A DNA stretch of 56,092 nucleotides from Candidatus Geocrenenecus sp. JGI 0000106-J15 (GCA_000405685.1 ASPF01000006.1:1-56092); one strand, 5' to 3'. Shown: positions 25,349 through 45,788, counted from the first letter of the stretch. Notes: generated from the letters alone by a model not told the origin. Numbers and translations are program-made.

Positions 25349-25699
25349 TTAGACTTCAATATCCGGTTTTCGCGTCAGAGTCATGTAGTCTGTCCGAGGC
25401 GGCACGAATACATCTATTACTAATACTTCCTCGATTGCATGGAATGCATGTTCTTCATTGGCTGGGATGAAGTATGAGTCGCCTTCTGAAACTTCTATCT
25501 TATTGTTTCTTGTTGCAAAGAATCCTCTTCCCGAGATAACCAATCCATACTGAGATTGAGGATGACTATGTATGGGTACTTCACCACCTGCCTTAATTTT
25601 AAACAACATTAAGAGGCAATTACCATCATAGCTTAAAGGAATTGCAGAAATCTTCTCCCTAATATTTAACCAAGAAGTTTTTCTCCATACTTTAACCAT
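25349..25699 (-). CDS. Cupin-domain protein
   Basis: 116 aa. Cupin motifs 'GGEVPIHSHPQSQYGLVISG' and 'GDSYFIPANEEHAFHA'. Confidence 0.7.
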   Translation of the reverse strand: MVKVWRKTSWLNIREKISAIPLSYDGNCLLMLFKIKAGGEVPIHSHPQSQYGLVISGRGFFATRNNKIEVSEGDSYFIPANEEHAFHAIEEVLVIDVFVPPRTDYMTLTRKPDIEV

Positions 25700-25748
25700 G
25701 AGATAAATACGAAGGTCTTCAATTAATTAGTCTTTCTCCATTTTCAGC

Positions 25749-26312
25749 ATGGTCTCCAAGAAATATATCTTAGTAAATACTCTAAATTTATTGAGCAATT
25801 TGGACAAGCTTGACGTTAATATAAAAATTGCATGTAGATTTTATCAAGAACCAGCAGGATGGGAGAGAATATTCTCAAATTTATCTTCGAAGGGATGGAT
25901 AAGAATGGAGAGAAGAGCAGTAAAAGATGAATATGAGATTGAATTTACTGGAGAGAGCATCGATGGATTAGAGATCCTACTATCATTGAAAAGTAAGAAT
26001 GGTTTTCCAGATCTAAAGATGTTCAAGAAACTTATTGAAAACTTACTGACTGATTGCTGGTATATCGATATTTATTATTGTTTTAGAGATATCAACATAG
26101 AGAGAGTAGCTAGAGAGCTAGGTTTACATTCTAATTCTAATGAAGTAAAGAGATTAAAGTTTGAAGGCTCTGAAATTCTAGTTGAGACATACCCATCTGT
26201 AAGTAAGGTTATAATAAGCCACAGGGTTGATTTAAAAGGAGTTTACTATATTGAGAAAATCTATTCAAAACTTCTCAAGAAGATCTTAACTAGAGAGGTG
26301 AGTCAACATTGA
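25749..26312 (+). CDS. Hypothetical protein in the arcadin-1 position, first gene of the crenactin operon
   Basis: 187 aa with no recognised family. Its TGA stop overlaps the crenactin TTG start (26309..26312). The N-terminal part has a possible winged-helix-like pattern ('KGWIRMERRAVKDEYEIEFTGESIDGLEIL'); that reading is weak. Confidence 0.55.
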   Translation: MVSKKYILVNTLNLLSNLDKLDVNIKIACRFYQEPAGWERIFSNLSSKGWIRMERRAVKDEYEIEFTGESIDGLEILLSLKSKNGFPDLKMFKKLIENLLTDCWYIDIYYCFRDINIERVARELGLHSNSNEVKRLKFEGSEILVETYPSVSKVIISHRVDLKGVYYIEKIYSKLLKKILTREVSQH

Positions 26313-27577
26313 GCGAAGATTACAAGCGTTCACATGTATTTGGAATAGATTATGGTACAAGCGATTTTAAGTATGGTCCTATAACAATTGGTGAAGTACC
26401 AGAAGTAGTAGAGAATAGAGGCTATTTTATTGAGAAGACCTCTATTATGTCTAGAGTAATGGGTGTAAACAGAGATATCGTAGTCGGCAGGGACCTCCCA
26501 TTATTCTTAGAATCAAGAGAAGATGTTGCTGAAAGGCTAGTATATCCTATGAGAAATGGTATAGTAGAAAAGAATGATCTAAAAGCTTGGCAAGTAATAA
26601 AAGAACTAACTAAGTATGCACTTGAAAACTATACTCCAAGTGACCCAGATTTTAGAGGATTCTATGTTGTTGCAAGTTTAGCAGTCGTAGCCCCTAGATA
26701 TATGTATGAACAATTATTCGATATATTCGGAGAACTAAATAGTGATAGGATCCTAGTTAGGGGGGCAACGATAATTCCTCAACCTCTAGCTGTAGCTATT
26801 GCTCATAAGATCCCAACATGTGTAGTAGTAGAAAGTGGTCATGGTAACACCCAAGTATGCCCAATCTCAATGTATCCAATAAGAAACGCAGTTGTAGCTC
26901 TTAATAGAGGTGGAAGCGCCGCCAGCGTCTTAACTTCAGAGATCCTTAAAGACTTAGGATATGGAGACTTGGCTAAAGAAGAGAAACTAGTTAGAAGAGT
27001 TAAGGAGCGGATAGGTCTCTTACCTCGACGGCTTGAAGAAGCTGTAGATTTTGCTCGGAAGAATCCAGATAAAGTAAAGAGAGAGATAAAGATAGAAGGT
27101 ACGAGAATCAAGATAGACTTAGGAGATGAAAGTTGGACAAGATTCTTGATCGGTGAATATACCTTCAACCCTGGGCATGAGATCTTTCAAAGCTATTTTA
27201 AGAGAGGTATGCCTAGACCAAGTGACGTAAAGATTGGAGATACTTATTTCTATGGAATGACAGATATGGCTGAAGCTGTAATTCAAGCAGTTGAAAAATG
27301 CTCGATTGAGCTTCAACCCCATCTATACTCTAAGATTATTTTATCAGGTGGAAATTTTAACTGGGATAGCCCTAAAGGATTAGAAGAAATCGCAGTAACA
27401 TCAGATACGAAGATAAAAATTATGTTAAAAGAGAAAGGAATAGAGAATGTTCAAGCAATAGTGGCTAGAGAGCCAACATATTCTGTATGGAGAGGATGCA
27501 TAGTCTATGGATATGCTGTTCCCTATGATTTTAAGTGGAGATGGGAAAGAATGGAGGGATGGTTAAATTATGCCTAG
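26309..27577 (+). CDS. cren-1: Crenactin (archaeal actin homologue)
   Basis: Near-collinear with Pyrobaculum crenactin as I remember it. Shared motifs: 'FGIDYGTSDFKYGPIT', 'PQPLAVAIA', 'VVESGHGNTQV', 'LNRGG', 'WTRFLIGE', 'ILSGGNFNW', 'PTYSVWRGCIVYGYA'. TTG start is preceded by GAGGTGA, and the first in-frame ATG falls after the phosphate-1 motif. Confidence 0.9.
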   Translation: MSEDYKRSHVFGIDYGTSDFKYGPITIGEVPEVVENRGYFIEKTSIMSRVMGVNRDIVVGRDLPLFLESREDVAERLVYPMRNGIVEKNDLKAWQVIKELTKYALENYTPSDPDFRGFYVVASLAVVAPRYMYEQLFDIFGELNSDRILVRGATIIPQPLAVAIAHKIPTCVVVESGHGNTQVCPISMYPIRNAVVALNRGGSAASVLTSEILKDLGYGDLAKEEKLVRRVKERIGLLPRRLEEAVDFARKNPDKVKREIKIEGTRIKIDLGDESWTRFLIGEYTFNPGHEIFQSYFKRGMPRPSDVKIGDTYFYGMTDMAEAVIQAVEKCSIELQPHLYSKIILSGGNFNWDSPKGLEEIAVTSDTKIKIMLKEKGIENVQAIVAREPTYSVWRGCIVYGYAVPYDFKWRWERMEGWLNYA

Positions 27578-28250
27578 AAGACCAACAATCGAAGACATAG
27601 TATCTAGTCTACTAATAGATGAAGGATTCTATGAAATATCGAGAAATAATGAGATAATAGGAGCAGATAGTCAAATAATTTTATCCGATGGTAGAATAGA
27701 GATTGCGGTAAATATTCTAAGTGAAGATTCATGTAGTTCAAGATCTATAATTCATGAAACTCTGATCGAGACCTTGAAACTTAGAAGCAGATATGATAGT
27801 GTAATACTTGCAGTGCCGAGAAAATATTTGAAGATTGTTGATCAAGATGTTTTAGCTAAGTATGGGGTGGGATTAATAATCTATGATGTAATGGGTGCAG
27901 AAGAAGTTTTACCTCCAAGACTAAGTAATAATAGAAAAGAAAAAATACAAAATATCCAAGACAATCTTAGAGACGTTCATATTAATGAGATCACTCTTCT
28001 CCAGTCTGAGATCTCTAGGATAACGAAGATACTTGAAGAAATTGAAGCTAGATTGGATAGATTAGAGAGAGAACAGAGAATACTAACTGATAGAATTAGT
28101 GAGTTAGAAAGAAGAAAGTCTCCTACAATTGGTGCAGAAAGGTTAGCCCAGCCTATAAGTAGTAAAGTTGAAGAACGTGAGAATAAGGACAGCCTCCCTT
28201 CATATCTTAGAGATAATCCATGGATAGATATACTGTCTAAGAGAGCGTGA
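27570..28250 (+). CDS. rkd-2: Arcadin-2-like protein
   Basis: Immediately downstream of crenactin with an 8-nt overlap. About 226 aa. Globular N-terminal domain, heptad-like coiled coil 'ITLLQSEISRITKILEEIEARLDRLEREQRILTDRISELERRK', then a short C-terminal tail 'LPSYLRDNPWIDILSKRA'. Position and architecture fit arcadin-2. I cannot verify sequence identity. Confidence 0.6.
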   Translation: MPRRPTIEDIVSSLLIDEGFYEISRNNEIIGADSQIILSDGRIEIAVNILSEDSCSSRSIIHETLIETLKLRSRYDSVILAVPRKYLKIVDQDVLAKYGVGLIIYDVMGAEEVLPPRLSNNRKEKIQNIQDNLRDVHINEITLLQSEISRITKILEEIEARLDRLEREQRILTDRISELERRKSPTIGAERLAQPISSKVEERENKDSLPSYLRDNPWIDILSKRA

Positions 28251-29038
28251 ATATTCTGAAGATAATAGTTCTAGGATCAGGTTCAATAATTCCAACAAAA
28301 TATAGGTTCTCAACATCATTTCTAATAGAATATTCCATGGGAAGGATACTCTTAGATATTGGTCCAGGAACTATAGAGAAATTGAGGAGAATGAATGTTC
28401 ATCCCAACTCTATTGATAGATTATTCATAACCCATTTCCACCTAGACCATACATTAGATCTCCCAGCATTGATAAAAATTAGGATGTTTAATGAACTTGG
28501 AGGAGCTAACAAAAACCCTCGAATTCTAGACGTCTATGGTCCAACTGGTTTAATGAGCTTTATAGATAAATTATCTTCTATCAATGGTGTATATGGATAT
28601 CTCTCAGAGATGATGCGTAATCTAGATTTTCTTAGAATCCATGAGATAGGGGGAGGACTAGTAGAAGATTTAAAGAATCTTAAAGTTTATGCAGCATCTG
28701 TAGAGCATTATAATGGTTTAGCATATAGACTTGAAGTAGATAGTGTAACCATAGCGTACTCTGGAGACTCCACCTACGATGAGAGGATGATAAAGCTTGC
28801 AGAAAGCGTAGACATCCTCATACATGAATGTTCATTCCCGAAAGAATTACTTCTAGGAAAACATACTTCAGATGAAGAATTAGTAGAGATTGGGAGAAGA
28901 ACGAAGCCTAAGCTACTCGTTGTAAATCATCTATATCCAGCTTGGGAAGGGAGAGAAGAAGAACTTGAAGATAAACTTAGGAAAGATACTGGATGTAGAG
29001 TCTACGTAGTAAAAGATATGGATGTTATATACGTATAA
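28247..29038 (+). CDS. MBL-fold metallo-hydrolase (RNase Z/ElaC-like)
   Basis: 'ITHFHLDHTLD' and 'GDS...HEC'. The GTG start overlaps the arcadin-2-like stop (GTGA at 28247..28250). Confidence 0.75.
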   Translation: MNILKIIVLGSGSIIPTKYRFSTSFLIEYSMGRILLDIGPGTIEKLRRMNVHPNSIDRLFITHFHLDHTLDLPALIKIRMFNELGGANKNPRILDVYGPTGLMSFIDKLSSINGVYGYLSEMMRNLDFLRIHEIGGGLVEDLKNLKVYAASVEHYNGLAYRLEVDSVTIAYSGDSTYDERMIKLAESVDILIHECSFPKELLLGKHTSDEELVEIGRRTKPKLLVVNHLYPAWEGREEELEDKLRKDTGCRVYVVKDMDVIYV

Positions 29039-29122
29039 CCAAGATACTCTGCCCAGTTAATCGATTATCCGTGATAAACTATAATTTTAAAGAGAAGCTA
29101 ATCTACATAAAGGCGGTGAAAC

Positions 29123-32980: not shown

Positions 32981-33637
32981 TCACTCTTTCTCGAGAACTA
33001 CTACTTCTACTTTTGCTTTCTTCTTGAATTCTTCAACGTCTTTACTGCCTCCAACTATTGCACCATAATGCATAGGTATCGCAATCTTCGGCTTAAATTC
33101 ATTTACTGCTTCTGCCGCCTCCTCTGCAGTCATTACAAATGTTCCACTAACAGGTATTAATGCAATATCAACTTTTAAATCTTTCATTTCAGGTATGGAG
33201 TCTGTATCTCCAGCATGGTATAGTCTAACTCCACCTACTTCAACTATGTATCCAACCCCTCCAGCCATCTTAGGATGATATACAACGCCAGGCTCTCTAA
33301 ACTTATTAACATTATATGCAGGAATAACTTTAACGCCTACTCCTGAAATCTCTAGTTCATCCCCAGGCTTCACAAACTTTAACAAGCCTATTTTCAGAGA
33401 GCTAATCTGTTTCCTACATGGTTCTGCAGCTATAATCTCTGTATCTATAGTAGCTATTTTTCTTATGTCATCTAGGCTAAGATGATCAAAATGCTCATGT
33501 GAGATAAATATGTGTGTTGCTTTCTCTTTCGGCTTTATCTTATAAGGGTCAAAGTATATCTTCTTATCAGAATGTTTGACATAAAAAGAATCATGCCCGA
33601 GCCAGCTAATTTCAACCCCTTGATACACATATGGCAT
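32981..33637 (-). CDS. MBL-fold metal-dependent hydrolase (UPF0173-like)
   Basis: 'ISWLGHDSF', 'ISHEHFDHLS' and 'HAGDT'. Confidence 0.8.
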   Translation of the reverse strand: MPYVYQGVEISWLGHDSFYVKHSDKKIYFDPYKIKPKEKATHIFISHEHFDHLSLDDIRKIATIDTEIIAAEPCRKQISSLKIGLLKFVKPGDELEISGVGVKVIPAYNVNKFREPGVVYHPKMAGGVGYIVEVGGVRLYHAGDTDSIPEMKDLKVDIALIPVSGTFVMTAEEAAEAVNEFKPKIAIPMHYGAIVGGSKDVEEFKKKAKVEVVVLEKE

Positions 33638-34874: not shown

Positions 34875-35873
34875 ATGAGTCTGACAACAGTTGCGACACT
34901 TCCATGGGTTGAGAAATATAGACCTAAAACATTAAATGATGTAGTCAACCAAGAAGAAGTAATTACAAGTTTAAAGAATATCTTAAAAACAAAGGCTGTT
35001 CCACATATGCTTTTCGCAGGCCCGCCAGGAGTAGGCAAAACAGCAACAGCACATGCTTTCGCAAGAGACTTGTACGGACCAAACTACATAGAGGATGGAT
35101 GGTTTGTAGAGATTAATGCAAGCGATGAAAGAGGGATTCAAACTATTAGAGATAAGGTTAAGATGTTTGCTCGTCAGATCCCAATGGGGGGAGAGATTAG
35201 TTTTAAGATACTATTGCTTGATGAAAGTGATCAGCTGACAGACGATGCTCAACATGCTTTTAGAAGGGTTATGGAACAATATTCTAGTACCTGTAGATTT
35301 ATCTTGGCCGCTAACTATAGTAATAAGATTATTGAACCTATACAGAGTAGATGTGCAGTTTTCAGGTTTAGGCCATTGCTTAAGAAAGATGTTATTGGAA
35401 GAATAAAATGGATAGCTGAAAAGGAGAAGCTTGAAGTAGACGATGCAGCTCTAGAAACCATATACGAATTCAGTGAAGGAGATATGAGAAGAGCGATAAA
35501 CATTCTCCAGGCATCCGCTTCTATTACTAGTAAAATAGATGAGAAGACGGTCTACTATATCTTAGGATACGTAAGTAGAGGAGAGATTAGAAAGATACTG
35601 GAATTAGCGATGAGTGGAAACTTTACACAAGCAAGAGATGAATTAAGAAAACTAATCTACGTTCAGGGACTGGCAGGTTCAGATATAGTTTCAGCGATAT
35701 ACCGTGAACTATTCTATCTAGATCTAGCTGAAGAAGATAAACTTGAACTAATCGACTTACTTGGAGAAGTAGATTACAGGATAGCTGAAGGAGGAACGGA
35801 AGAAGTCCAGCTCATGGCCTTCTTAGCAAGACTTGCAGCTAAGTCAAGAAAGAAGATGAATATAGGGAGATAG
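34875..35873 (+). CDS. rfcS: Replication factor C small subunit
   Basis: 'PWVEKYRP', 'GPPGVGKT', 'LLDESDQL' and 'IQSRCAVFRF'. 332 aa, so no intein. Confidence 0.95.
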   Translation: MSLTTVATLPWVEKYRPKTLNDVVNQEEVITSLKNILKTKAVPHMLFAGPPGVGKTATAHAFARDLYGPNYIEDGWFVEINASDERGIQTIRDKVKMFARQIPMGGEISFKILLLDESDQLTDDAQHAFRRVMEQYSSTCRFILAANYSNKIIEPIQSRCAVFRFRPLLKKDVIGRIKWIAEKEKLEVDDAALETIYEFSEGDMRRAINILQASASITSKIDEKTVYYILGYVSRGEIRKILELAMSGNFTQARDELRKLIYVQGLAGSDIVSAIYRELFYLDLAEEDKLELIDLLGEVDYRIAEGGTEEVQLMAFLARLAAKSRKKMNIGR

Positions 35874-35875
35874 GG

Positions 35876-37183
35876 ATGCCCCAGCTCTGGACGGAAAAAT
35901 ATAGACCAAAAAAGGTAGCTGAGGTAGTCGGTAACCAAGACTCAGTGAAAACCTTCATTGAATGGATGAAGAGCTGGGAGATGGGAAAACCTTCTAAGAA
36001 GGCTGCACTACTTTATGGACCTGCAGGGGTAGGTAAGACAAGCTTAGTATTAGCTTATGGGAGAGAATATGGATATGATGTAATTGAAGTTAACGCTAGC
36101 GATTGGAGAAATGAAGAGAAGATGAAATCGATAGTCGGAGAATCATCTCAATATGCTTCATTGGATGGATACTCGAGAAAGATAATACTAGTAGATGAAG
36201 TAGATGGGATAGCAGGTAGAGAAGATGCTGGAGGAATATTAGCTTTAAGAAAGATAATTAGTGAAACAAGAGTACCCATAGTGATGGTTGCAAATAATCC
36301 ATGGGATCAGAAACTAGCATCTATTAGAGAGCAATCATTAATAATAGAATTCAAGAGACTAAGTAAGACTGCACTTATTAAGAGGTTAAGAGAAATCTGT
36401 GAAAAAGAAGGGATAAATGTTTCAGACGAACTATTGAGCAAGCTTGCGGAGAGGTCAGAAGGAGACTTGAGGTCAGCTGTAATGGATTTACAGGCAGTTG
36501 CAGCTGGAAAAAATACTCTTACTGAAAAAGACTTAGAAGTGTTAGGAGAGAGAAATAGGGTTAGAGAAATATTTGAAGCTTTAAGATACATCTTCTATGC
36601 GAAATCTATTAGAGGTGCTAGAGCTGCTATAGAAGGCTTAGAGCTTGAGCCTAAGACAATCTATACTTGGGTACTTGATAATGCTCCTACACAAATAACC
36701 GATCTAGATGAGCTAGCTGAAGCTTTTGATTTACTTGCAAGAGCTGACATATATTTTGCGAGGATAGAGAAGCTTCAAATGTGGAGATTGATGAAATATG
36801 CTATTCCATTAATGACTGGAGGGGTTGCAGTAGCGAGAAGAACACCACCTAAGGGTTTTCAGAAATTTACTTTCCCCCATAAGATTAGACTCCTCCAACA
36901 ATATAAGAATGAAAGAGAGATTAGACAGAGTATAGCAATGAAGATTGCATCTAAGCTTCATCTTTCAAAATATAAAGCAAGCAAGGATGTGCTCCCCTAC
37001 ATCGGCTTCCTAATATCCCGTACATATGGATCAAAACCTAGAATAACTGAATACTTTGAATTTACAATAGAAGAGGTTGAATACTTAAATAAAATATATG
37101 GTAGAGTAGAAGAAGAGAAAACTGAGATTAAAGATGTAAAAGTGGAGAAACCTGTAAAGCATTCTAGAAGAAAGTCTCGATAA
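35876..37183 (+). CDS. rfcL: Replication factor C large subunit
   Basis: 'WTEKYRP', 'GPAGVGKTS', 'LVDEVDG' and a basic C-terminal tail. Confidence 0.9.
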   Translation: MPQLWTEKYRPKKVAEVVGNQDSVKTFIEWMKSWEMGKPSKKAALLYGPAGVGKTSLVLAYGREYGYDVIEVNASDWRNEEKMKSIVGESSQYASLDGYSRKIILVDEVDGIAGREDAGGILALRKIISETRVPIVMVANNPWDQKLASIREQSLIIEFKRLSKTALIKRLREICEKEGINVSDELLSKLAERSEGDLRSAVMDLQAVAAGKNTLTEKDLEVLGERNRVREIFEALRYIFYAKSIRGARAAIEGLELEPKTIYTWVLDNAPTQITDLDELAEAFDLLARADIYFARIEKLQMWRLMKYAIPLMTGGVAVARRTPPKGFQKFTFPHKIRLLQQYKNEREIRQSIAMKIASKLHLSKYKASKDVLPYIGFLISRTYGSKPRITEYFEFTIEEVEYLNKIYGRVEEEKTEIKDVKVEKPVKHSRRKSR

Positions 37184-37226
37184 AATAGAAAATGCTTGAA
37201 AATTATTGTTTAGTTTTTCACCTTTC

Positions 37227-38399
37227 TTAGTATTTTGTTTGTTTACTTGGTAGAAGAGGTTTTAGCTCCTTCTTTAATATGGATGTAGGTATGCCTGGTA
37301 GAGAAATGTAGGATTTCCTACCTTTAGAACCTTCACTTATAACTCTTATCTTGATTATCCCAAGGTCATCAAGGACTTGTAGTGCCTCCCAGAAACTTGT
37401 ATATGATTTAGGTTCAACGCCGTATTCTTCACAAACCATTTTATAATAATCATTTAGCATACTTGAAGTAACATATGCAGACTTTTCAACTTCTAAAGCC
37501 TGAGCTAAAGCTAATAGTATAAGCTTAGAATGTTGTTCAAGAAACTCTAAGTGTTCTCTCCTTATGGTGGGGTAAACGCTTGCAGCAGCTTTCCTTACGT
37601 GTTCAGGAGCGACTTGAGAAGCATTCTCAGCCTCAGCATATTTTCCAGCCCTCCATAATATGTCTAAAGCATATCTAGCATCTCCTCTCTCACCTGCAAT
37701 ATCTGCAATCAAGTGTACTGCATCTTCCATTACTACATCTGGTCTAAAAGCTAGAGCTGCTCTATATTTTATAATATCATATAGTTGGGTATAATCATAT
37801 TCTCTTAGATGGATGATGTTTCCTAGAAGACTGCTCCTTGTACTTGCATCAAGTGTATCAAGTATCTCAAGATTTCTGAATATGAATATAGTAGATATTC
37901 TCGGAATCTTTGATCTTTCTTCTCCTACTCTAGAGAATAGGTAAAATGGTTCAGAACCTTCTTCTCTTAAAAGCATCTCAACCTCGTCTAGGACTAAGAT
38001 AGCATAAGATCCTTTATAATCGAGGTAATCTAGAAATTTATGGAAGAGCTCTTCATTTGACAGCCCCCTCTCAGGTAGTCTAGCCTTTAATTGCTCTATC
38101 AGCTTCCTCAACACCGAGAAGGCAGTTCTACTTATCCTACAATTTACATATAGAAACTTTAAGTCGACTCCTTTCTTTAAAGCTTCTGAAATAGCTTTCT
38201 GCCCAAATAATTTCACCAGTGCACTCTTACCTGTGCCGACAGATCCCGAAACAATAACTCTAGTAGATATCGATGGTGATCCATCAATAATACTACTGAA
38301 AAATATCTTTAACATGTTCAGCTCATTTTCACGATGTGGAAGATTGGGGGGAACATACTCTGGTGAAAGCTTTTCTTCATCTTTGAATATCTTCATCAC
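37227..38399 (-). CDS. cdc6: Orc1/Cdc6 replication initiator
   Basis: 'PPNLPHRENE', Walker A 'GSVGTGKSA', Walker B 'VLDEVE', and a C-terminal winged-helix-like region. Confidence 0.9.
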   Translation of the reverse strand: MMKIFKDEEKLSPEYVPPNLPHRENELNMLKIFFSSIIDGSPSISTRVIVSGSVGTGKSALVKLFGQKAISEALKKGVDLKFLYVNCRISRTAFSVLRKLIEQLKARLPERGLSNEELFHKFLDYLDYKGSYAILVLDEVEMLLREEGSEPFYLFSRVGEERSKIPRISTIFIFRNLEILDTLDASTRSSLLGNIIHLREYDYTQLYDIIKYRAALAFRPDVVMEDAVHLIADIAGERGDARYALDILWRAGKYAEAENASQVAPEHVRKAAASVYPTIRREHLEFLEQHSKLILLALAQALEVEKSAYVTSSMLNDYYKMVCEEYGVEPKSYTSFWEALQVLDDLGIIKIRVISEGSKGRKSYISLPGIPTSILKKELKPLLPSKQTKY

Positions 38400-38465
38400 T
38401 ATAATGTAGTTGAAAACGGATACATATAAGTTAAGCTGATGTCAACAGCACCTTAGTGAGGTCTT

Positions 38466-39431
38466 CTACTTGGTTAGATATTTCCACGATAAGATTATGC
38501 CTACTGTTGTTAGAAGTATAGCGAAGACTGTTAGATATGTGAAATCTATTAGTAGAGTTGCGTAGTTCGTTTGATAGATCGTGAGTTGGCGGAGAGCATC
38601 TGTGATATAGCTTACAGGATTTATGGATGCGATACCTTGAAGCCATTCAGGCATCATCCTAGTTGGAAAGAATGCATTGCTAGTAAACATTAATGGTAGA
38701 TTGAATAGGTTTACTACCGCCATCTGTGTCTCATGTCTTGTAGATCTTAGAGCAAAAGCTAGGAAGAGCGATGATATACCCATTGAGAAGAGGAAGATCG
38801 CTAGATAGATTGCTAGTATATTTAGTAAACTAAACGTTGAACTAAATCTTATCCCTAAGATTGCCGCTAAACCAAGAATTATAGTAGATTGGAAGATTGA
38901 ACGTAAAGCTGCATTAAAGACTTTAGACAACACTATTGCCGACCTCGGAACAGGTGTACTTAACACCTTATATAGAAATCCAAGTCTTCTATCCCATACG
39001 ATAGACATACTAGAGAAGGTTGAGGTAAATATTGTTAGCATAGAGATCATTCCTACAGCTAGATAACTAAAGTAGTCGGAGACACCGAAGGTCGACTCCA
39101 TTGCTTTCAGACTAATTGTTGGGAAGATACTTCTAAGATTTTCGGAGAGTACAAAACTTGGTATGGTTACTACTCCATCGATCTGTGGGTTCAATAGGTT
39201 GCCAGGTATTCTTATATCTGGGATATTTATCTCGTTCAATGTACTAGTAGATAAGATTGCTCCAATATTCATTGATTTCCCGAATAGGGTCATCCATATA
39301 ATTGGTTGTATTATGGCCATGAATAGTATCAGTGGTTCCTTCATCCATTTTTTAAGCTCTCTACTTGTTAAACCCCAGAATCCCTGAAGCATTGCCTTAA
39401 ACTTAACTCCATCATTTGACTCTAACATCAT
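38466..39431 (-). CDS. ABC-2 type transporter permease
   Basis: 321 aa with six or more hydrophobic segments. 4-nt overlap with the upstream ATPase gene. Confidence 0.75.
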   Translation of the reverse strand: MMLESNDGVKFKAMLQGFWGLTSRELKKWMKEPLILFMAIIQPIIWMTLFGKSMNIGAILSTSTLNEINIPDIRIPGNLLNPQIDGVVTIPSFVLSENLRSIFPTISLKAMESTFGVSDYFSYLAVGMISMLTIFTSTFSSMSIVWDRRLGFLYKVLSTPVPRSAIVLSKVFNAALRSIFQSTIILGLAAILGIRFSSTFSLLNILAIYLAIFLFSMGISSLFLAFALRSTRHETQMAVVNLFNLPLMFTSNAFFPTRMMPEWLQGIASINPVSYITDALRQLTIYQTNYATLLIDFTYLTVFAILLTTVGIILSWKYLTK

Positions 39432-40432
39432 CTTCTCGCCCTCCTTAATGTAATTCTTTGTGACATTATTGTTTCTCGAGCCTCTTCTGAATCTCTCATA
39501 GCCCTACCAGTATATGTTAAGAAGACCTCATCTAATGTTGGCTTACTTATCGACAACTTTACAACATGATATCCTTTCTTGCTAAGATTATCGATAATTA
39601 AAGGGGCTACTATCTCTCCATTCTCTAGTCTCACTATGTATGACCTATCACTTCTCTTTTTAACTTCTTTTACATATTCTATTCTATTGATTAAGTTCGT
39701 AACATCATCTTCCTCCAAGATTATGATCTCCATAATATCGCTACCTATTGAGTTCTTTAACTCTTGAGGCGTACCCGTAATCACGATCTTTCCATGATCA
39801 ATTATAGCTATTTTATCACATAAATTATCTGCTTCCTCCATGTAATGGGTAGTCATAAGTATAGTCATATCATATTCTTCTTTCAATTTCTTAATATAGT
39901 TCCATATAGCCGATCTAGTTTGAACATCTAAACCTAGAGTAGGCTCATCTAAGAATAATACTTTAGGCCTGTTGATGAGACCGCATGCAAGCTCTAGTCT
40001 CCTCCTCATCCCTCCAGAATATGTCTCAACCTTCTTATCCTTGAACCTCGTTAACTCCATAAGCTCTAGAAGCTCCATAGCCCGCTTCTTTGACGTATCT
40101 CTAGGTATTCCATATAAGTCTCCACATAGAATTATGTTCTCGTATCCTGTAAGGTCTTCATCGGCTGTGTATTCTTGTGGAACAACACCGATCGATCTTC
40201 TCACAATACTTGCATGTTTAACCACATCGTATCCCATTATGAATGCTCTGCCTTCCGTAGGTTTTAAGACAGTAGTCAACATATTGATAGTGGTTGTTTT
40301 ACCTGCACCATTAGGACCGAGTAAGCCGAAGATCTCGCCTCTCTTAACATTGAAGGAAACATGATCTACAGCTACCAAGCTTCCATTAAAAATCTTGGTT
40401 AAGTTTTCAACTACTATAACATCCTGATTCAT
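39428..40432 (-). CDS. ABC transporter ATP-binding protein (DrrA/ABC-2 type)
   Basis: 'GPNGAGKTT', 'YSGGMRRR' and 'LFLDEPT'. Confidence 0.9.
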   Translation of the reverse strand: MNQDVIVVENLTKIFNGSLVAVDHVSFNVKRGEIFGLLGPNGAGKTTTINMLTTVLKPTEGRAFIMGYDVVKHASIVRRSIGVVPQEYTADEDLTGYENIILCGDLYGIPRDTSKKRAMELLELMELTRFKDKKVETYSGGMRRRLELACGLINRPKVLFLDEPTLGLDVQTRSAIWNYIKKLKEEYDMTILMTTHYMEEADNLCDKIAIIDHGKIVITGTPQELKNSIGSDIMEIIILEEDDVTNLINRIEYVKEVKKRSDRSYIVRLENGEIVAPLIIDNLSKKGYHVVKLSISKPTLDEVFLTYTGRAMRDSEEARETIMSQRITLRRARR

Positions 40433-40994
40433 CTTTTTCCCCCTCCATTTCCTTCTCTAATTCTTCAAGTCTGGAAGTTGCATCTTTCAAGATCGTGATA
40501 GCTGATTCGACATATTCTTTATTATCTTTTTCACGTATCTTAGCTTCAAGTTTAAAGAATGCTTGCATGAAGTTTTTTAATGCATTAATTAGCTCCTGTC
40601 TATCATCTCTGGATGTCTTATAGAAAGCTAAGTCTAGAAAGTAAGGTGCAAATAGTTTACAAGATCTAGCCATGAATGCTTTAACCTTTCTTTGTTCTTC
40701 AAGGAGTTTCATACCTTTTTCTGTTAGAGTATATTTCTTTGTACTTGTTTCATCGCTTTGAGTTTCTTTTATGTAACCTCTACTCTTTAACCACTCAAGC
40801 AGTGGATAAATCGAGCCAGGGCTAGGTCTCCATAAACCGCCACTATGTTCTTCCACCAAATCCATTATTTCAGAACCAGATCTAGGTTCTTCAGATAATA
40901 ATTCTAATACGTAGTATCTGAGTAATCCCTTAGGAGCGACAGCCATATGCTTCATCCAGTGTTTACGTCTAGCATGGTTTAGTAGAGGCCACAT
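40407..40994 (-). CDS. PadR-family transcriptional regulator
   Basis: 'LRYYVLELLSEEPRSGSEIMDLVEE...GSIYPLLEWLKSRGYI'. The start may be an internal Met (MKHM / MAVAPKG). Confidence 0.8.
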   Translation of the reverse strand: MWPLLNHARRKHWMKHMAVAPKGLLRYYVLELLSEEPRSGSEIMDLVEEHSGGLWRPSPGSIYPLLEWLKSRGYIKETQSDETSTKKYTLTEKGMKLLEEQRKVKAFMARSCKLFAPYFLDLAFYKTSRDDRQELINALKNFMQAFFKLEAKIREKDNKEYVESAITILKDATSRLEELEKEMEGEKDESGCYSS

Positions 40995-41089
40995 TTCTTT
41001 ATCGATTTCGATATCTTCATCAATATATTTAAGCCTATTTCTTCTTCAAGATTTTAGGTTTTAGGGAAATCTAAAATTTAGAAAACAGA

Positions 41090-41497
41090 TTAATCGATAG
41101 AAGTAGGAGTCTCAATTCTAACCCCGGTTAGTGGAATACATTCTACAACATCTTTAAAATCGTTATGCTGGACAATGTAGACACCGTATTCATTAACGAT
41201 ACATAATTCTTCTGAGCCACCTCTTATTTTATCGAATAAGCATATTGTATTTGATCTATTATCTAAGATCTTTACTTTTTCAAGATCTTTTAAAGCACTT
41301 ACTATGACTACTTTATTCACTGTACAGTAAGCATTGAAAGTCTTCTCTATAGAATAGAATGGAATGGTTCTACTTAGATAAGTAATATAGAAGTGAAGTA
41401 CAATCGAGGCAATGATGATCAATGCTATACCTATCAAGAATAAACCTATTTTAGCGAAATCTCTTAGAGAAGAATCTGCAAACACCTTACCCATCAA
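41090..41497 (-). CDS. Hypothetical membrane-anchored protein
   Basis: 135 aa. A single N-terminal TM segment 'IGLFLIGIALIIIASIVLHFYI'. No family recognised. Confidence 0.45.
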   Translation of the reverse strand: MMGKVFADSSLRDFAKIGLFLIGIALIIIASIVLHFYITYLSRTIPFYSIEKTFNAYCTVNKVVIVSALKDLEKVKILDNRSNTICLFDKIRGGSEELCIVNEYGVYIVQHNDFKDVVECIPLTGVRIETPTSID

Positions 41498-41690
41498 CTT
41501 GAAATCCAGCTTTGGCCTTACTTAAATCTTATTAAGAGTGATGAACTGTGTAGTCTTGAGAAGAGAGGCGGCAATAGACATACTCTAGCTTAGATTTCTT
41601 CTCAAATCTTAAGTGAATCAGATGATCCTCAATGAAAAATTACTTAAACAAGTATGAAGATTTGTTTAATCTAAAAACAAATAAAGATGT

Positions 41691-42791
41691 TTGTCATGTC
41701 TTAATGTTGTCATGAGAGTTGTTGGGATCGACCCTGGAACTAAGAGTTTTGATATATTTGGGCTAGAAGACGAAAAGATCTTCTTAGACGAATCTATACC
41801 GACTGAAGAGATAGATAGAGATCCTGATAGATTGGTGAAGCTACTTCTAGATGTAGTACCTATAGATGTCGTAGTCGGTCCATCTGGATATGGTATCTCG
41901 TTAAAACATATCTCTCAAATAACGAATGAAGACCTCTTCCAGATCGTTCTCGTTAAGGATGATGATGTAGGATTAGCTGTCCTTACTGGACTAGTAAAAC
42001 TAATAAAAAAGATGAAAGACACTAAGTTAAACATTTATCTAATACCTGGTGTTATACATCTTCCAACAATTCCAGATTATAGAAAGTTAAACGCAATTGA
42101 TATGGGCACAGCTGATAAACTATGTTGTGCAGTTCTAGCAGTCTATGATTATTCAAGAAGACATGGAATCACATATGATGAGGTTTCATTAATCTTAGTA
42201 GAGGTTGGTTTTGGATTTAATGCGGGGATAGCGATAGAGAAGGGTAGAATAGTTGATGGAATAGGTGGAAGTAAGGCAGGCTTAGGTTTCTTAACATGTG
42301 GAGGTCTAGATATGGAGGTAGCATATCTCTTAGGCTCATTCAGTAAGAACATCTTATTTACTGGAGGAGTGAAGACGATAATCGGTGATGATAAACTTAC
42401 ACCTGAAGATTTCCCAAAGGTAGCCATGATAAACGAGAGGGCTAATCTAGCCTGGGAAGCATTCATGGAAGGCATAGAGAAAATGGTTAGAGCGTTAAAG
42501 ACTTCAGTTAAGAACCCTAAAGCAGTAATTCTCTCAGGAAGATTAAGTAATATTCCTGAAATCTATAAAGAATTAGAGAATAGACTTTCAGAAATAGCTA
42601 AAGTTGAAAAGCTTGAAGGCTTCCATGCAAGAGCTAAAGCCGCTGCACAAGGAGCAGCCTTAATTGCAGATGGATTAGCTGGGGGGAGAACAAGTAAACT
42701 AATAGAACATATGAAGATAACCGAAGCAAGTGGAACAGTCTTAGACCATGTATACATTGGAGACATAAGAAGTAAATATCTTCGGAAGTAG
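41691..42791 (+). CDS. ASKHA (actin/Hsp70/sugar-kinase) fold protein, DUF1464-like
   Basis: 'VVGIDPGTKSFDIFG' phosphate-1-like motif, 'LVEVGFGFNAGIAIEKGRIVDGIGG', 'ILSGRLS'. About 360 aa, as I recall for the archaeal DUF1464 family. Confidence 0.6.
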   Translation: MSCLNVVMRVVGIDPGTKSFDIFGLEDEKIFLDESIPTEEIDRDPDRLVKLLLDVVPIDVVVGPSGYGISLKHISQITNEDLFQIVLVKDDDVGLAVLTGLVKLIKKMKDTKLNIYLIPGVIHLPTIPDYRKLNAIDMGTADKLCCAVLAVYDYSRRHGITYDEVSLILVEVGFGFNAGIAIEKGRIVDGIGGSKAGLGFLTCGGLDMEVAYLLGSFSKNILFTGGVKTIIGDDKLTPEDFPKVAMINERANLAWEAFMEGIEKMVRALKTSVKNPKAVILSGRLSNIPEIYKELENRLSEIAKVEKLEGFHARAKAAAQGAALIADGLAGGRTSKLIEHMKITEASGTVLDHVYIGDIRSKYLRK

Positions 42792-42842
42792 AAAATTAGT
42801 AAACCTAGACGTAATTAAAGTTTCAACTATTGTTAGATAAAG

Positions 42843-42943
<101 letters not shown>

Positions 42944-43106
42944 TATATATCATTAGTATCTAGGTCGTATTTTTGCTTAACTTTAAGTTTTTCCCCAGTT
43001 TTAAGTCATTTCAAAGTACTTCATAGCAGATTATCCTTGTCTACTCCATTTTCAGCCAAGTCTCTCTTAAATAAATTCAACCAGTTACAGCTATGTTATA
43101 GAGAAG

Positions 43107-43643
43107 ATGGGGGTCGAAGCCATAGTAGAATCGTTTAGGAAGCAGCTTGAGCTTGTTAAGTTAGAGTATGATAACGCTGAGAAGAAGGTTGTCTTATTGA
43201 AGGATGTTCAGAGGCTTGCTCTTCCAGGTCAAGTATTTGAAAATTTAAGGAGAGGGACTACGCTAATGATTAGTAAGTGGGCGGCAGCTAGACTCCATGA
43301 GGCAGGTATAGTTGAGTATGGAGATAAGGTTATAGATTTGAAGAGTTTAATACAACTAGAATGGAAGGAAAAGAATAATCCTGGGGAACTACAAGAGTTA
43401 CCAAGATTTTTCTATTTAATGATAAAAGAAGAAGGGGATAAACTTGACCAGAATATAAAGAACATCATAGTAGATATAATCTCATTGAGGCTGAACAAGA
43501 TACTTGGACTTGCTTCTAAAAGAATTGATACAAGCTTAGTTGAGAATCTTACAAGAGAAGAAGGGCTCTTCTATGACGTAATTAGAAGCATAATTGATGA
43601 ATGGTTGAGATCTATCTCGCCAGTAGGGATGAGGGAAAAATGA
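43107..43643 (+). CDS. GINS subunit (Gins23-like by synteny with MCM)
   Basis: 178 aa and helical. The stop overlaps the likely MCM start (ATGA at 43640..43643). A gins23-mcm operon is known from Sulfolobus. The sequence-level call is weak. Confidence 0.55.
   Translation: MGVEAIVESFRKQLELVKLEYDNAEKKVVLLKDVQRLALPGQVFENLRRGTTLMISKWAAARLHEAGIVEYGDKVIDLKSLIQLEWKEKNNPGELQELPRFFYLMIKEEGDKLDQNIKNIIVDIISLRLNKILGLASKRIDTSLVENLTREEGLFYDVIRSIIDEWLRSISPVGMREK
43327..43421. repeat. Internal source/partner of the right-terminal 95-nt inverted copy
   Basis: The reverse complement of 43327..43421 is identical to 55998..56092. This copy lies inside the intact GINS reading frame. Confidence 0.95.
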
Positions 43644-45661: not shown

Positions 45662-45788
45662 TTTATGCAGGCAAGTGATTGAATATTTTTCTAAATCTGC
45701 ATAATCATCTCTAATATGATCTTATCCACCATGAAGGTATTAATATGGTTTTATAGAAGTGGAAGAATGAGAAATAATTTATCTGCTA

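Follow-up and report, generated by a model that had tools for sequence, protein, structure and literature searches.

The arcade cluster of Pyrobaculum calidifontis reportedly consists of arcadin-1, crenactin, arcadin-2, arcadin-3, and arcadin-4 (Ettema et al., 2011; Izore et al., 2016). Aigarchaeota, to which the organism described here belongs, are described in the literature as also possessing FtsZ and CdvBC. The final 17 residues of P. calidifontis arcadin-2 occupy the hydrophobic groove of crenactin via a Trp residue and depolymerize its filaments (Izore et al., 2016; PMC5173319).

The window, i.e., the whole stretch of 56,092 nucleotides analyzed here, comes from Candidatus Geocrenenecus, a hot-spring Aigarchaeon (Wolframiiraptoraceae, Caldarchaeales/Aigarchaeota) that belongs to neither the Thermoproteota nor the Korarchaeota. 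The best-matching loci are those of Ca. Geocrenenecus arthurdayi, huangii, and dongiae, whose crenactins show 79–91% identity to that of the window. Four ORFs on the plus strand at 25749..29038 very probably form a chromosomal operon encoding the version of the crenactin cytoskeleton used by this lineage, with arcadin-2 and a distinct upstream gene family; the gene identities, homology, motif conservation, and gene linkage are directly supported. The locus resembles the arcade of Thermoproteales in its orthologous crenactin (~45% identity), in an arcadin-2 gene that is located directly downstream and built alike, down to the invariant Trp motif of the C-terminal helix, in a small gene directly upstream of crenactin, and in its operon-like organization. 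It differs in lacking arcadin-1 (PF18653), arcadin-3 (NF053562), and the SMC/Rad50-like arcadin-4 (NF053563), in an upstream gene from a family with no detectable relationship to arcadin-1, in a metallo-β-lactamase (MBL) hydrolase gene that follows arcadin-2, and in its Aigarchaeal host.

Organization of the four-gene cluster

ORF1 (25749..26312; 187 aa) starts with ATG, ORF2 or crenactin (26309..27577; 422 aa) with TTG, ORF3 or arcadin-2 (27570..28250; 226 aa) with ATG, and ORF4, the MBL hydrolase (28247..29038; 263 aa), with GTG. A sequence-only reading had joined these ORFs by start/stop overlaps, and both the coordinates and the junctions were found exactly as it described: TTGA between ORF1 and crenactin (26309–26312), the 8-nt ATGCCTAG between crenactin and arcadin-2 (27570–27577), and GTGA between arcadin-2 and ORF4 (28247–28250). 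Shine-Dalgarno-like boxes precede crenactin and arcadin-2, while promoter-like AT-rich boxes lie only outside the four genes. Upstream, ORF1 is separated from a divergently oriented cupin gene (25349..25699, minus strand) by an intergenic region (25700..25748), the presumed promoter of the operon, in which an AT-rich TATA-like stretch, TTCAATTAATTAG, is located ~20–30 nt 5′ of the ORF1 ATG. Downstream, ORF4 is followed by an 85-nt spacer (29039..29122) that probably marks the 3′ end of the operon; this spacer carries a TATA-like TTTTAAA ~30 nt before the start of the dCTP deaminase gene, as well as a GGTGA box. Judging from the overlaps and the flanking promoter-like sequences, the four ORFs would be transcribed as a single transcript.

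The same gene order was found in ~22 distinct loci of Wolframiiraptoraceae, including that of the cultured Wolframiiraptor gerlachensis (locus L027); because of this conservation, the arrangement of the ORFs is not attributable to chance. Plasmid partition loci typically pair actin-like proteins with small adaptor genes, and the cluster could on this ground be read as part of a mobile element or as a chromosomally integrated actin partition cassette of the plasmid type. However, the GC content is uniform (36–39%), no integrase, PHROG, or PADLOC signals were found, ORF2 is an ortholog of a chromosomal crenactin, and the flanks consist of housekeeping genes (EF-2, dCTP deaminase, and the RFC/Cdc6/MCM replication genes) in a synteny conserved across the whole family. 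This conserved chromosomal synteny effectively refutes the mobile-cassette reading, which has practically no likelihood.

Crenactin and arcadin-2

ORF2 is readily assigned as crenactin, for which NF053560 and the PDB entries 4CJ7, 5LY3, and 5LY4 served as references. It was aligned with the NCBIfam crenactin model NF053560 from end to end (model positions 1–421 of 422; 566 bits, E 4e-170), and matched the P. calidifontis crenactin of solved structure (PDB 4cj7/5ly3) over its full length (E 9e-116), far more strongly than eukaryotic actins (~1e-8). Its score is below the curated equivalog cutoff of NF053560 (630 bits), a shortfall that we attribute to divergence (45% identity) and not to a different architecture. 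NF053560 and the arcadin-2 model NF053561 appear to rest on Thermoproteales sequences, to which NF053560 appears to be tuned. The residues of phosphate 1 (D14/G16/T17/S18), the catalytic Gln (Q158), and the residues of phosphate 2 (E175/G177/H178/G179/N180) and of the adenosine motif (S346/G347/G348) are all invariant between ORF2 and P. calidifontis crenactin, so that its earlier description as an unmistakable crenactin with every nucleotide-binding motif of the actin fold is borne out. Crenactin would presumably build ATP-dependent actin-like filaments.

The TTG start, which had been claimed to be obligatory, also stood up to comparison. The first in-frame Met of ORF2 is residue 47, C-terminal to the phosphate-1 motif FGIDYGTS (residues 11–18). 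In all 17 of the related loci in which the N-terminal motif could be located, the codon directly before the conserved SE(E/D)YK is TTG, ATG, or GTG. A conserved Shine-Dalgarno-like box, GAGGTG/GGGGTG, lies 6–9 nt 5′ of the crenactin start in the related loci, and AGGTGA lies 7 nt 5′ of the TTG in the window. The relatives therefore confirm TTG as the start.

The third gene, previously called arcadin-2-like, can be regarded as a true arcadin-2 ortholog on the basis of reciprocal iterative profile links to Rkd2 of Pyrobaculum and the same position beside crenactin. While the direct match of ORF3 to NF053561 (arcadin-2, Rkd2) was weak (25 bits, E 1.3e-5, against a curated cutoff of 290 and 306 bits for the Pyrobaculum ortholog), jackhmmer searches with ORF3 reached the Pyrobaculum and Thermoproteus genes (E 1e-35 to 1e-44), and those with P. 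oguniense arcadin-2 returned to ORF3 (E 1e-45). Arcadin-2 adjoins crenactin in ~70 distinct loci (80/88 fetched loci, duplicates included). The AF2 model of ORF3 (pLDDT 78.5) comprises an N-terminal α/β domain (aa 1–115), a long coiled-coil helix (aa 138–183), a disordered linker (aa 188–205), and a C-terminal helix (217–224 in the model). The C-terminal motif LPSYLRDNPWIDILSKRA (28194..28247, plus strand; aa 209–226) is predicted to be the helix that binds the hydrophobic groove of crenactin. N216 and W218 never vary in alignments of 17 and 33 sequences ranging from Pyrobaculum to Bathyarchaeia, and I221 and L222 hardly do, giving the form DN(P/E)W..IL. Because arcadin-2 of the window keeps this Trp-containing helix of the Pyrobaculum type, it is expected to control filament assembly likewise: the helix would plug the hydrophobic groove, sequester crenactin monomers, and depolymerize the filaments, by analogy with the Pyrobaculum protein.

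The other arcadins show a different distribution. Neither arcadin-1 nor arcadin-3 nor arcadin-4 was found by tblastn and HMM searches anywhere in the 56 kb window, where searches for arcadin-3 and -4 returned only chance matches or ABC-transporter ATPases, and the largest ORFs encode MCM, a helicase, EF-2, GluRS, and a surface protein. The claim that no SMC-like arcadin-4 lies nearby thus extends to the whole 56 kb. Among 80 crenactin loci surveyed, arcadin-1, -3, and -4 were restricted to Thermoproteales, while the pair of crenactin and arcadin-2 was present nearly everywhere. The five-gene arcade can accordingly be taken, among the surveyed loci, as a form specific to Thermoproteales, and crenactin with arcadin-2 as the general, widespread core. 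The sequence-only reading had called the composition of the present cluster non-canonical, which is true in comparison with the five-gene arcade but not with the general form. Its suggestion of a reduced or re-wired module, with partners other than those in Pyrobaculum, is supported by the absence of arcadin-1, -3, and -4, the retention of arcadin-2, and an upstream gene other than arcadin-1. Nor do an ordinary arcadin-1 and a hydrolase accompany crenactin everywhere, as ORF1 is not arcadin-1 and, in the surveyed loci, the MBL gene neighbors the crenactin module only in Wolframiiraptoraceae. Loci of Bathyarchaeia, Culexarchaeia, and Methanomethylicota (e.g., L032, L038, L054, L058, L089, and L094) share with the window an ORF1-family gene, crenactin, and arcadin-2 with overlapping starts and stops, but have a conserved Cys-rich protein of ~90 aa after arcadin-2, in the slot occupied by the MBL gene in the window.

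The metallo-β-lactamase-fold hydrolase

The identification of the last gene as an MBL-fold hydrolase is upheld by matches of ORF4 to PF12706 (47.9 bits) and PF00753 (43.6 bits), both above the gathering scores, and by the metal motif HxHxDH, present as HFHLDH in the translation. With RNase Z/ELAC1-type phosphodiesterases, ORF4 shares the MBL fold and the HxHxDH motif, and it aligns collinearly with the two halves of RNase Z. However, its score with the RNase Z model TIGR02651 (124 bits) is far under the cutoff (293), and its alignment to 1y44 skips RNase Z residues 150 to 205, indicating that ORF4 lacks the flexible arm (exosite) required for binding tRNA. RNase Z proper was rejected on these two grounds. 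The full-length similarity is better to short MBLs of the cyclic-nucleotide-phosphodiesterase type (NF041851; 90 bits, cutoff 400). We therefore classify ORF4, by sequence, as a putative RNase Z/ELAC-type MBL-fold phosphodiesterase devoid of the tRNA-binding arm.

ORF4 is predicted to be translationally coupled to arcadin-2 and would be co-transcribed with the module. It is rather doubtful that it has a genuine function within the actin module of Wolframiiraptoraceae, for example as a phosphodiesterase whose substrate is a nucleotide signal or nucleic acid at the filaments. The GTGA overlap, the promoter-like box belonging to the next gene, dcd, and the adjacency of ORF4 and arcadin-2 in all Wolframiiraptoraceae loci that are sufficiently covered favor such a role, and this adjacency survives rearrangements between genera in the region before ORF1 (orientation of EF-2, presence of the cupin gene). 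On the other hand, the spacing between ORF4 and arcadin-2 differs between genera, arm-less RNase Z-like MBLs are common as stand-alone housekeeping enzymes, and no ORF4 orthologs were found near crenactin in the surveyed loci of other lineages. As the linkage is confined to one family, a functional link to crenactin is at most putative; the synteny of this family embraces dcd and a radical SAM gene to the same extent, which makes the adjacency of ORF4 inseparable from synteny at the family level.

The gene upstream of crenactin and the question of DNA binding

ORF1 had been described as unrecognizable, and indeed no match was found in Pfam, NCBIfam, or the sequences of the PDB. It can nevertheless be placed in an unnamed, conserved family adjacent to crenactin. 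The family aligned with the gene upstream of crenactin in loci of the Bathyarchaeia/Culexarchaeia type (hhalign probability 93%, E 3e-7, 140 columns). It is small, with 31 representatives among 1.84 billion proteins. All 32 family matches within ~1.3 Mb of loci lie directly upstream of crenactin, and a reverse look-up from family members found crenactin directly downstream in 8 of 9 informative contigs; in the exception, P0026, whose 5.9 kb MAG contig includes Ns, an MFS transporter gene follows instead. Members occur beside crenactin in loci of Wolframiiraptoraceae, Bathyarchaeia, and the Culexarchaeia type, but are absent from this position in many loci of Bathyarchaeia and in all those of the Caldarchaeum type, indicating that the family is not obligatory for crenactin function. 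Because the family travels with crenactin across lineages, its gene neighborhood suggests that ORF1 is most likely a lineage-specific accessory factor of crenactin or arcadin-2, which would stand in place of arcadin-1 and may contact crenactin physically. The locus brings to light an uncharacterized gene family, conserved beside crenactin, in a lineage of which a member has been cultured.

ORF1 occupies the slot of arcadin-1, being the gene directly before crenactin, with the same orientation and with coupled translation, and arcadin-1 binds crenactin weakly (Kd 15 μM; PMC5173319) and may for this reason evolve fast. Even so, it is very improbable that ORF1 is an extremely diverged arcadin-1 ortholog with the same role. 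PF18653 (Arcadin_1) detected nothing in ORF1 at E ≤ 0.1, while a control, Pyrobaculum arcadin-1, scored 150 bits; hhalign gave ORF1 a probability of 0.1%, and 0.1–0.2% for the two ORF1-family subgroups. In addition, the arcadin-1 profile had no match in the six-frame translation of the 56 kb window, the lengths differ (165–242 aa in the ORF1 family against 111–119 aa in arcadin-1), and a Foldseek search with the ORF1 model, which is of moderate confidence (pLDDT 71.5), did not place the arcadin-1 structure 5LY5 within its 50 best matches. On the sequence profiles, ORF1 was accordingly not assigned to arcadin-1.

The AF2 model of ORF1 (pTM 0.70; residues 1–19 of low confidence, relatives beginning near residue 17) shows two tandem units, 2 × (β-α-β-β-β-α), with a TBP-like topology, and no internal repeat was found in its sequence. 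The top four Foldseek matches of this moderate-confidence model were TBP chains (E 1e-4 to 1e-3, probability 0.8–0.98), but with TM of only 0.22–0.26 and rmsd of ~11 Å. Some family members carry an additional C-terminal ribbon-helix-helix (RHH) domain (27.5 bits on RHH_1 in P0040, gathering score 20.5), which was not found in ORF1 of the window. The N-terminal domain of the arcadin-2 model matches the PD-(D/E)xK restriction-endonuclease-like fold (PaqCI, XisH, BamHI, FokI, and Bax1, probability 1.00), but the canonical PD-(D/E)xK residues are not conserved in the arcadin-2 alignments of 17 and 33 sequences.

These DNA-binding-type folds raise the question of whether the module is a chromosomal DNA-segregation machine similar to ParMRC, in which arcadin-2, the ORF1-family protein, or both tether DNA to crenactin filaments. 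As in ParMRC, a type II plasmid partition system, an actin-like filament protein is combined with an adaptor whose C-terminal peptide is inserted into a groove, and the C-terminal helix of arcadin-2 uses the same groove as ParR does on ParM (PMC5173319). Arcadin-2 of P. calidifontis was reported between segregated nucleoids, as cited in 10.1101/2022.04.06.487207, which is in line with such a role. We nevertheless consider it unlikely: ORF1 of the window has no RHH domain, the TM of its TBP match is low, the PD-(D/E)xK residues are not conserved in arcadin-2, and no iterated centromere-like repeats were found near the operon. The crenactin locus also differs from ParMRC in being conserved on the chromosome and inherited vertically, and it has no sequence homology to ParR. 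In vitro, arcadin-2 sequesters monomers and depolymerizes filaments instead of stabilizing them (PMC5173319). The more general proposal that, outside Thermoproteales, the ORF1 family (maybe TBP-like, and fused to RHH in some members) and arcadin-2, with a degenerate restriction-endonuclease-like core, form a different, previously undescribed adaptor set that couples chromosomal DNA to actin filaments is similarly improbable; if true, the crenactin module would be the archaeal equivalent, encoded on the chromosome, of actin-driven DNA segregation of the ParMRC type, instead of or besides a cell-shape cytoskeleton. For the crenactin cytoskeleton, which we prefer, the coiled coil and the nuclease-like N-terminal domain of arcadin-2 would probably serve to dimerize the protein and to anchor it to another partner, possibly DNA.

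Organization of the putative crenactin operon

Four plus-strand genes are fused between positions 25749 and 29038: ORF1 (25749..26312, 187 aa, ATG start), the crenactin gene ORF2 (26309..27577, 422 aa, TTG start), the arcadin-2 gene ORF3 (27570..28250, 226 aa, ATG start), and the metallo-beta-lactamase (MBL) hydrolase gene ORF4 (28247..29038, 263 aa, GTG start). The four ORFs are as the sequence-only reading had described them, and the three junctions (TTGA between ORF1 and ORF2, the 8-nt overlap ATGCCTAG between ORF2 and ORF3, and GTGA between ORF3 and ORF4) were read in the DNA. The TTG of ORF2 is preceded by AGGTGA at 7 nt and the ATG of ORF3 by GGAGG. AT-rich TATA-like boxes were found only in the 49-nt divergent spacer before ORF1 and in the 85-nt spacer after ORF4, where the box lies ~30 nt ahead of the dCTP deaminase start. 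Because the genes overlap and these boxes are limited to both outer spacers, the sequence is consistent with a single four-gene transcription unit. The flanks (EF-2 and cupin upstream; dCTP deaminase, dihydroneopterin aldolase, and a radical SAM enzyme downstream) are housekeeping genes with conserved synteny, and the GC content of the window is uniform (36-39%). A defence-system or phage origin received no support from PADLOC and PHROGs, which returned only coiled-coil noise.

Judging from its sequence, ORF2 is crenactin with the actin-fold motifs ascribed to it earlier: it aligned end to end with the NCBIfam crenactin model (E 4e-170), scoring 566 bits, just under the Thermoproteales-tuned cutoff of 630, and it matched the P. 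calidifontis crenactin structures (E 9e-116). Its nucleotide-binding residues and catalytic Gln are invariant. In a locus search with crenactin, the window fell within Ca. Geocrenenecus (Wolframiiraptoraceae, Caldarchaeales, syn. Aigarchaeota), its crenactin being 91% identical to that of Ca. G. arthurdayi. The proposed TTG start also stood, since the codon before the conserved SE(E/D)YK is TTG, ATG, or GTG in the 17 related loci in which this N-terminal motif was located, each with a GAGGTG/GGGGTG box upstream of the start, and the first internal Met of ORF2 is residue 47, past the phosphate-1 motif.

ORF4 has the MBL fold and the motif HFHLDH, in agreement with its earlier description as an MBL-fold hydrolase; it is collinear with both RNase Z halves, without the flexible arm, and scores far under the RNase Z cutoff. 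Its orthologues lie 3' of arcadin-2 only in Wolframiiraptoraceae, where the dCTP deaminase gene (dcd) and the radical SAM gene are equally syntenic. The MBL genes beside Culexarchaeia-type crenactin were rejected as orthologues (~23% identity). A second, unrelated MBL-fold hydrolase gene (PF13483, PRK00685 type) is located at 32981..33637 on the minus strand, and a gene of this type is kept 4.5-6.8 kb 3' of crenactin throughout Wolframiiraptoraceae.

Crenactin neighbourhoods in other archaea

To our knowledge, the cellular role of crenactin has been unresolved since 2011, and arcadins 1, 3, and 4 have no known function. The functions of the arcadins are still termed unclear (PMC10936438). Our survey covered 80 fetched crenactin loci from Wolframiiraptoraceae, Caldarchaeum-type and Calditenuaceae-labelled Caldarchaeales, Culexarchaeia, Methanomethylicota, Bathyarchaeia, Thermofilum, Thermoproteus, and Pyrobaculum, and four layouts were recognized. 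Layout T is arcadin-1 (Arcadin_1, PF18653), crenactin, arcadin-2, arcadin-3, and arcadin-4 in Thermoproteaceae (Pyrobaculum and Thermoproteus), and the same order minus arcadin-1 in Thermofilum; arcadin-1 was confined to Thermoproteaceae among the surveyed loci. Layout B, the Bathyarchaeia/Culexarchaeia type, is an ORF of 180-242 aa, crenactin, arcadin-2, and a Cys-rich protein of ~90 aa. Layout W, that of Wolframiiraptoraceae including the window, is ORF1, crenactin, arcadin-2, MBL, and dcd. Layout C, the Caldarchaeum type, is arcadin-2 followed by crenactin.

The canonical five-gene cluster is thus a lineage-specific form among these loci. The sequence-only reading had called the module non-canonical, reduced or re-wired, with partners that might be unlike the described set. 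That inference is supported: arcadin-1, -3, and -4 are all absent from the window, and profile comparison did not relate the upstream gene to arcadin-1. The composition is normal for its family, layout W being common to Wolframiiraptoraceae. The absence of a long SMC-like arcadin-4 nearby was likewise borne out, none of the large ORFs in the window being SMC-like. A 768 aa ORF at 7810..10116 (+), which matches no Pfam/NCBIfam family, was rejected as a hidden arcadin-4; with its signal peptide, beta-rich repetitive segments, transmembrane helix at the C-terminal end, and charged tail, it probably belongs to the surface or S-layer-type proteins. The gene order of the window recurs in the locus of Wolframiiraptor gerlachensis (L027), an organism in culture (PMC9246946), so that the predicted interactions and transcript structure are directly testable.

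In Bathyarchaeia, Culexarchaeia, and Methanomethylicota loci, the gene directly 3' of arcadin-2 encodes a conserved protein of ~90-100 aa with a C-terminal ..EC..CPRF(I/V)(K/R)R.. motif (L038:9855-10166, L043:10010-10285, L032:9879-10151, L089:6463-6738, and L094:5456-5734). This Cys-rich protein was unmatched in Pfam/NCBIfam and is distinct from arcadin-3; the window does not encode it. The inverted order, with arcadin-2 immediately 5' of crenactin, was found in six Caldarchaeum-type loci (L033, L039, L041, L042, L051, and L056), none of which has an ORF1-family gene nearby. Three further loci (L049, L052, and L064), whose labels are Caldarchaeales, Thermoproteota, and uncultured archaeon, encode directly 5' of crenactin (about -935..-80 relative to it) a protein of ~285 aa that has a zinc ribbon (CPHC..C.NC) at its N-terminus and gave weak coiled-coil matches, CdvA-like and GvpG-like; arcadin-2 was undetected near crenactin in these three. 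Arcadin-1 and -2 have been recorded alongside crenactin in Caldarchaeales, on arCOG evidence (10.1101/2022.04.06.487207). The 'arcadin-1' arCOG05582 was reported for Caldarchaeales and Culexarchaeia, and the table of the reporting paper has arCOG05582 also in crenactin-lacking genomes.

The ORF1 family

ORF1, which had been termed unrecognizable, is indeed unmatched in the curated libraries (Pfam, NCBIfam, PDB by phmmer at E 10, PADLOC, and PHROGs), but it belongs to a conserved family: hhalign established homology between the upstream genes of Wolframiiraptoraceae and those of type B (93% probability, E 3e-7, 140 columns). The profile evidence rejects ORF1 as arcadin-1 (0.1% probability by hhalign). 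An HMM from the joint alignment detected 32 family members in the fetched loci, and all 32 end within ~26 nt of a same-strand crenactin start. In the reverse look-up, in which ten members were located by exact sequence, crenactin lay immediately 3' of the family gene in 8/9 informative contigs. The exception, P0026 (L097:3001-3558), is followed by an opposite-strand MFS transporter gene on a 5.9 kb MAG contig that holds a run of Ns, so that either a misassembly or a true exception may apply.

The family is tiny. A word-indexed search with ORF1 found 5 close relatives only, a 26-sequence alignment search 16 proteins, and an exhaustive HMM search 31 representatives (E < 1e-3) among 1.84 billion proteins; every member found is annotated as 'hypothetical'. 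The database protein P0022 (221 aa), in which the N-terminus is of the ORF1 family and the C-terminus that of a 2-hydroxyglutaryl-CoA dehydratase D-component, is probably an assembly chimera. The AF2 model of ORF1 (pLDDT 71.5, pTM 0.70) consists of two tandem beta-alpha-beta3-alpha units, and TBP chains rank first among its PDB matches (E 1e-4); because the TM is only ~0.25, the predicted TBP-like fold is tentative. No internal sequence repeat was detectable in ORF1 (0.6% probability between its two halves by hhalign). Several type-B members carry an extra C-terminal ribbon-helix-helix (RHH) domain (CopG/aCcr1-like), which is absent from the window ORF1; the family members that bear it include P0040 (L091:719-1333; 27.5 bits on RHH_1, gathering score 20.5), P0034 (L098:58-753), P0031, P0023, L032:7310-8008, and L038:7276-8004. 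This domain implies DNA binding by its bearers in those lineages.

The locus is a new form of a known system, with an uncharacterized conserved family of putative partners. In no fewer than three archaeal groups, the genes of this small, unnamed family are almost always located directly 5' of crenactin. Gene linkage strongly suggests that ORF1 would act as a lineage-specific accessory, which we consider likely.

Arcadin-2 and a possible link to DNA

The direct match of ORF3 to the arcadin-2 model is weak (25 bits). Its identification as arcadin-2 is better backed by iterative profile searches across all ORFs of 88 fetched loci, which reciprocally linked ORF3 to the gene just 3' of Pyrobaculum crenactin; that gene scores 306 bits on the model. 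The architecture of core domain, linker, and C-terminal helix described by Izore et al. (2016) is also seen in the ORF3 alignments, where the linker is variable and the C-terminal helix conserved, with N216 and W218 invariant and I221/L222 almost invariant. The P. calidifontis helix fills the hydrophobic groove of crenactin via a Trp and depolymerises filaments (PMC5173319). Crenactin together with arcadin-2 and its groove-binding Trp helix is the widespread part among the sampled crenactin-bearing lineages, to which lineage-specific add-ons are joined. Regulation of crenactin filaments by arcadin-2 through groove binding would be the most likely mechanism, conserved and well founded by homology.

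In the AF2 model of ORF3 (pLDDT 78.5), an alpha/beta domain predicted with confidence at the N-terminus (residues 1-115; 27570..27914, +) is followed by a 45-residue helix, a disordered linker, and the C-terminal helix. For the N-domain, the matches are PD-(D/E)xK restriction-endonuclease-like folds at a probability of 1.00, including PaqCI, XisH, BamHI, FokI, Bax1, and XPF (TM up to 0.53 on the target). All family members share D91, G101, and D106, and the active-site residues are degenerate; because the alignments show no conservation of the canonical catalytic residues, this predicted domain probably serves for binding and not as a nuclease. The predicted nuclease-like core provides a concrete hypothesis for a role of arcadin-2 beyond monomer sequestration. 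Our literature search found no description of this core fold or of the ORF1 family, which does not prove that none exists.

A more speculative explanation is that the module tethers DNA in a ParMRC-like manner, to which the RHH fusions in the ORF1 family, the predicted nuclease-like core, and the resemblance of arcadin-2 groove binding to ParR would lend weight; against it, arcadin-2 depolymerises filaments in vitro, and centromere-like repeats are absent near the operon, where the search for such repeats or tandem arrays gave only short two-copy chance matches. Filament regulation by arcadin-2 is the reading we prefer.

A dense replication neighbourhood (34875..47954) lies ~6-9 kb 3' of the operon. 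Its genes encode both RFC subunits (small and large), Orc1/Cdc6 (37227..38399, minus strand), GINS, MCM, and a Hel308-type helicase, so that an origin of replication may be close. Beside these genes, a 366 aa protein is encoded at 41691..42791 (+) that matches DUF1464 (PF07318, E 3e-105), which we take to be a member of the actin-like ATPase clan. If that clan assignment holds, the window would contain another gene of the actin superfamily, at a distance of 14 kb from crenactin.
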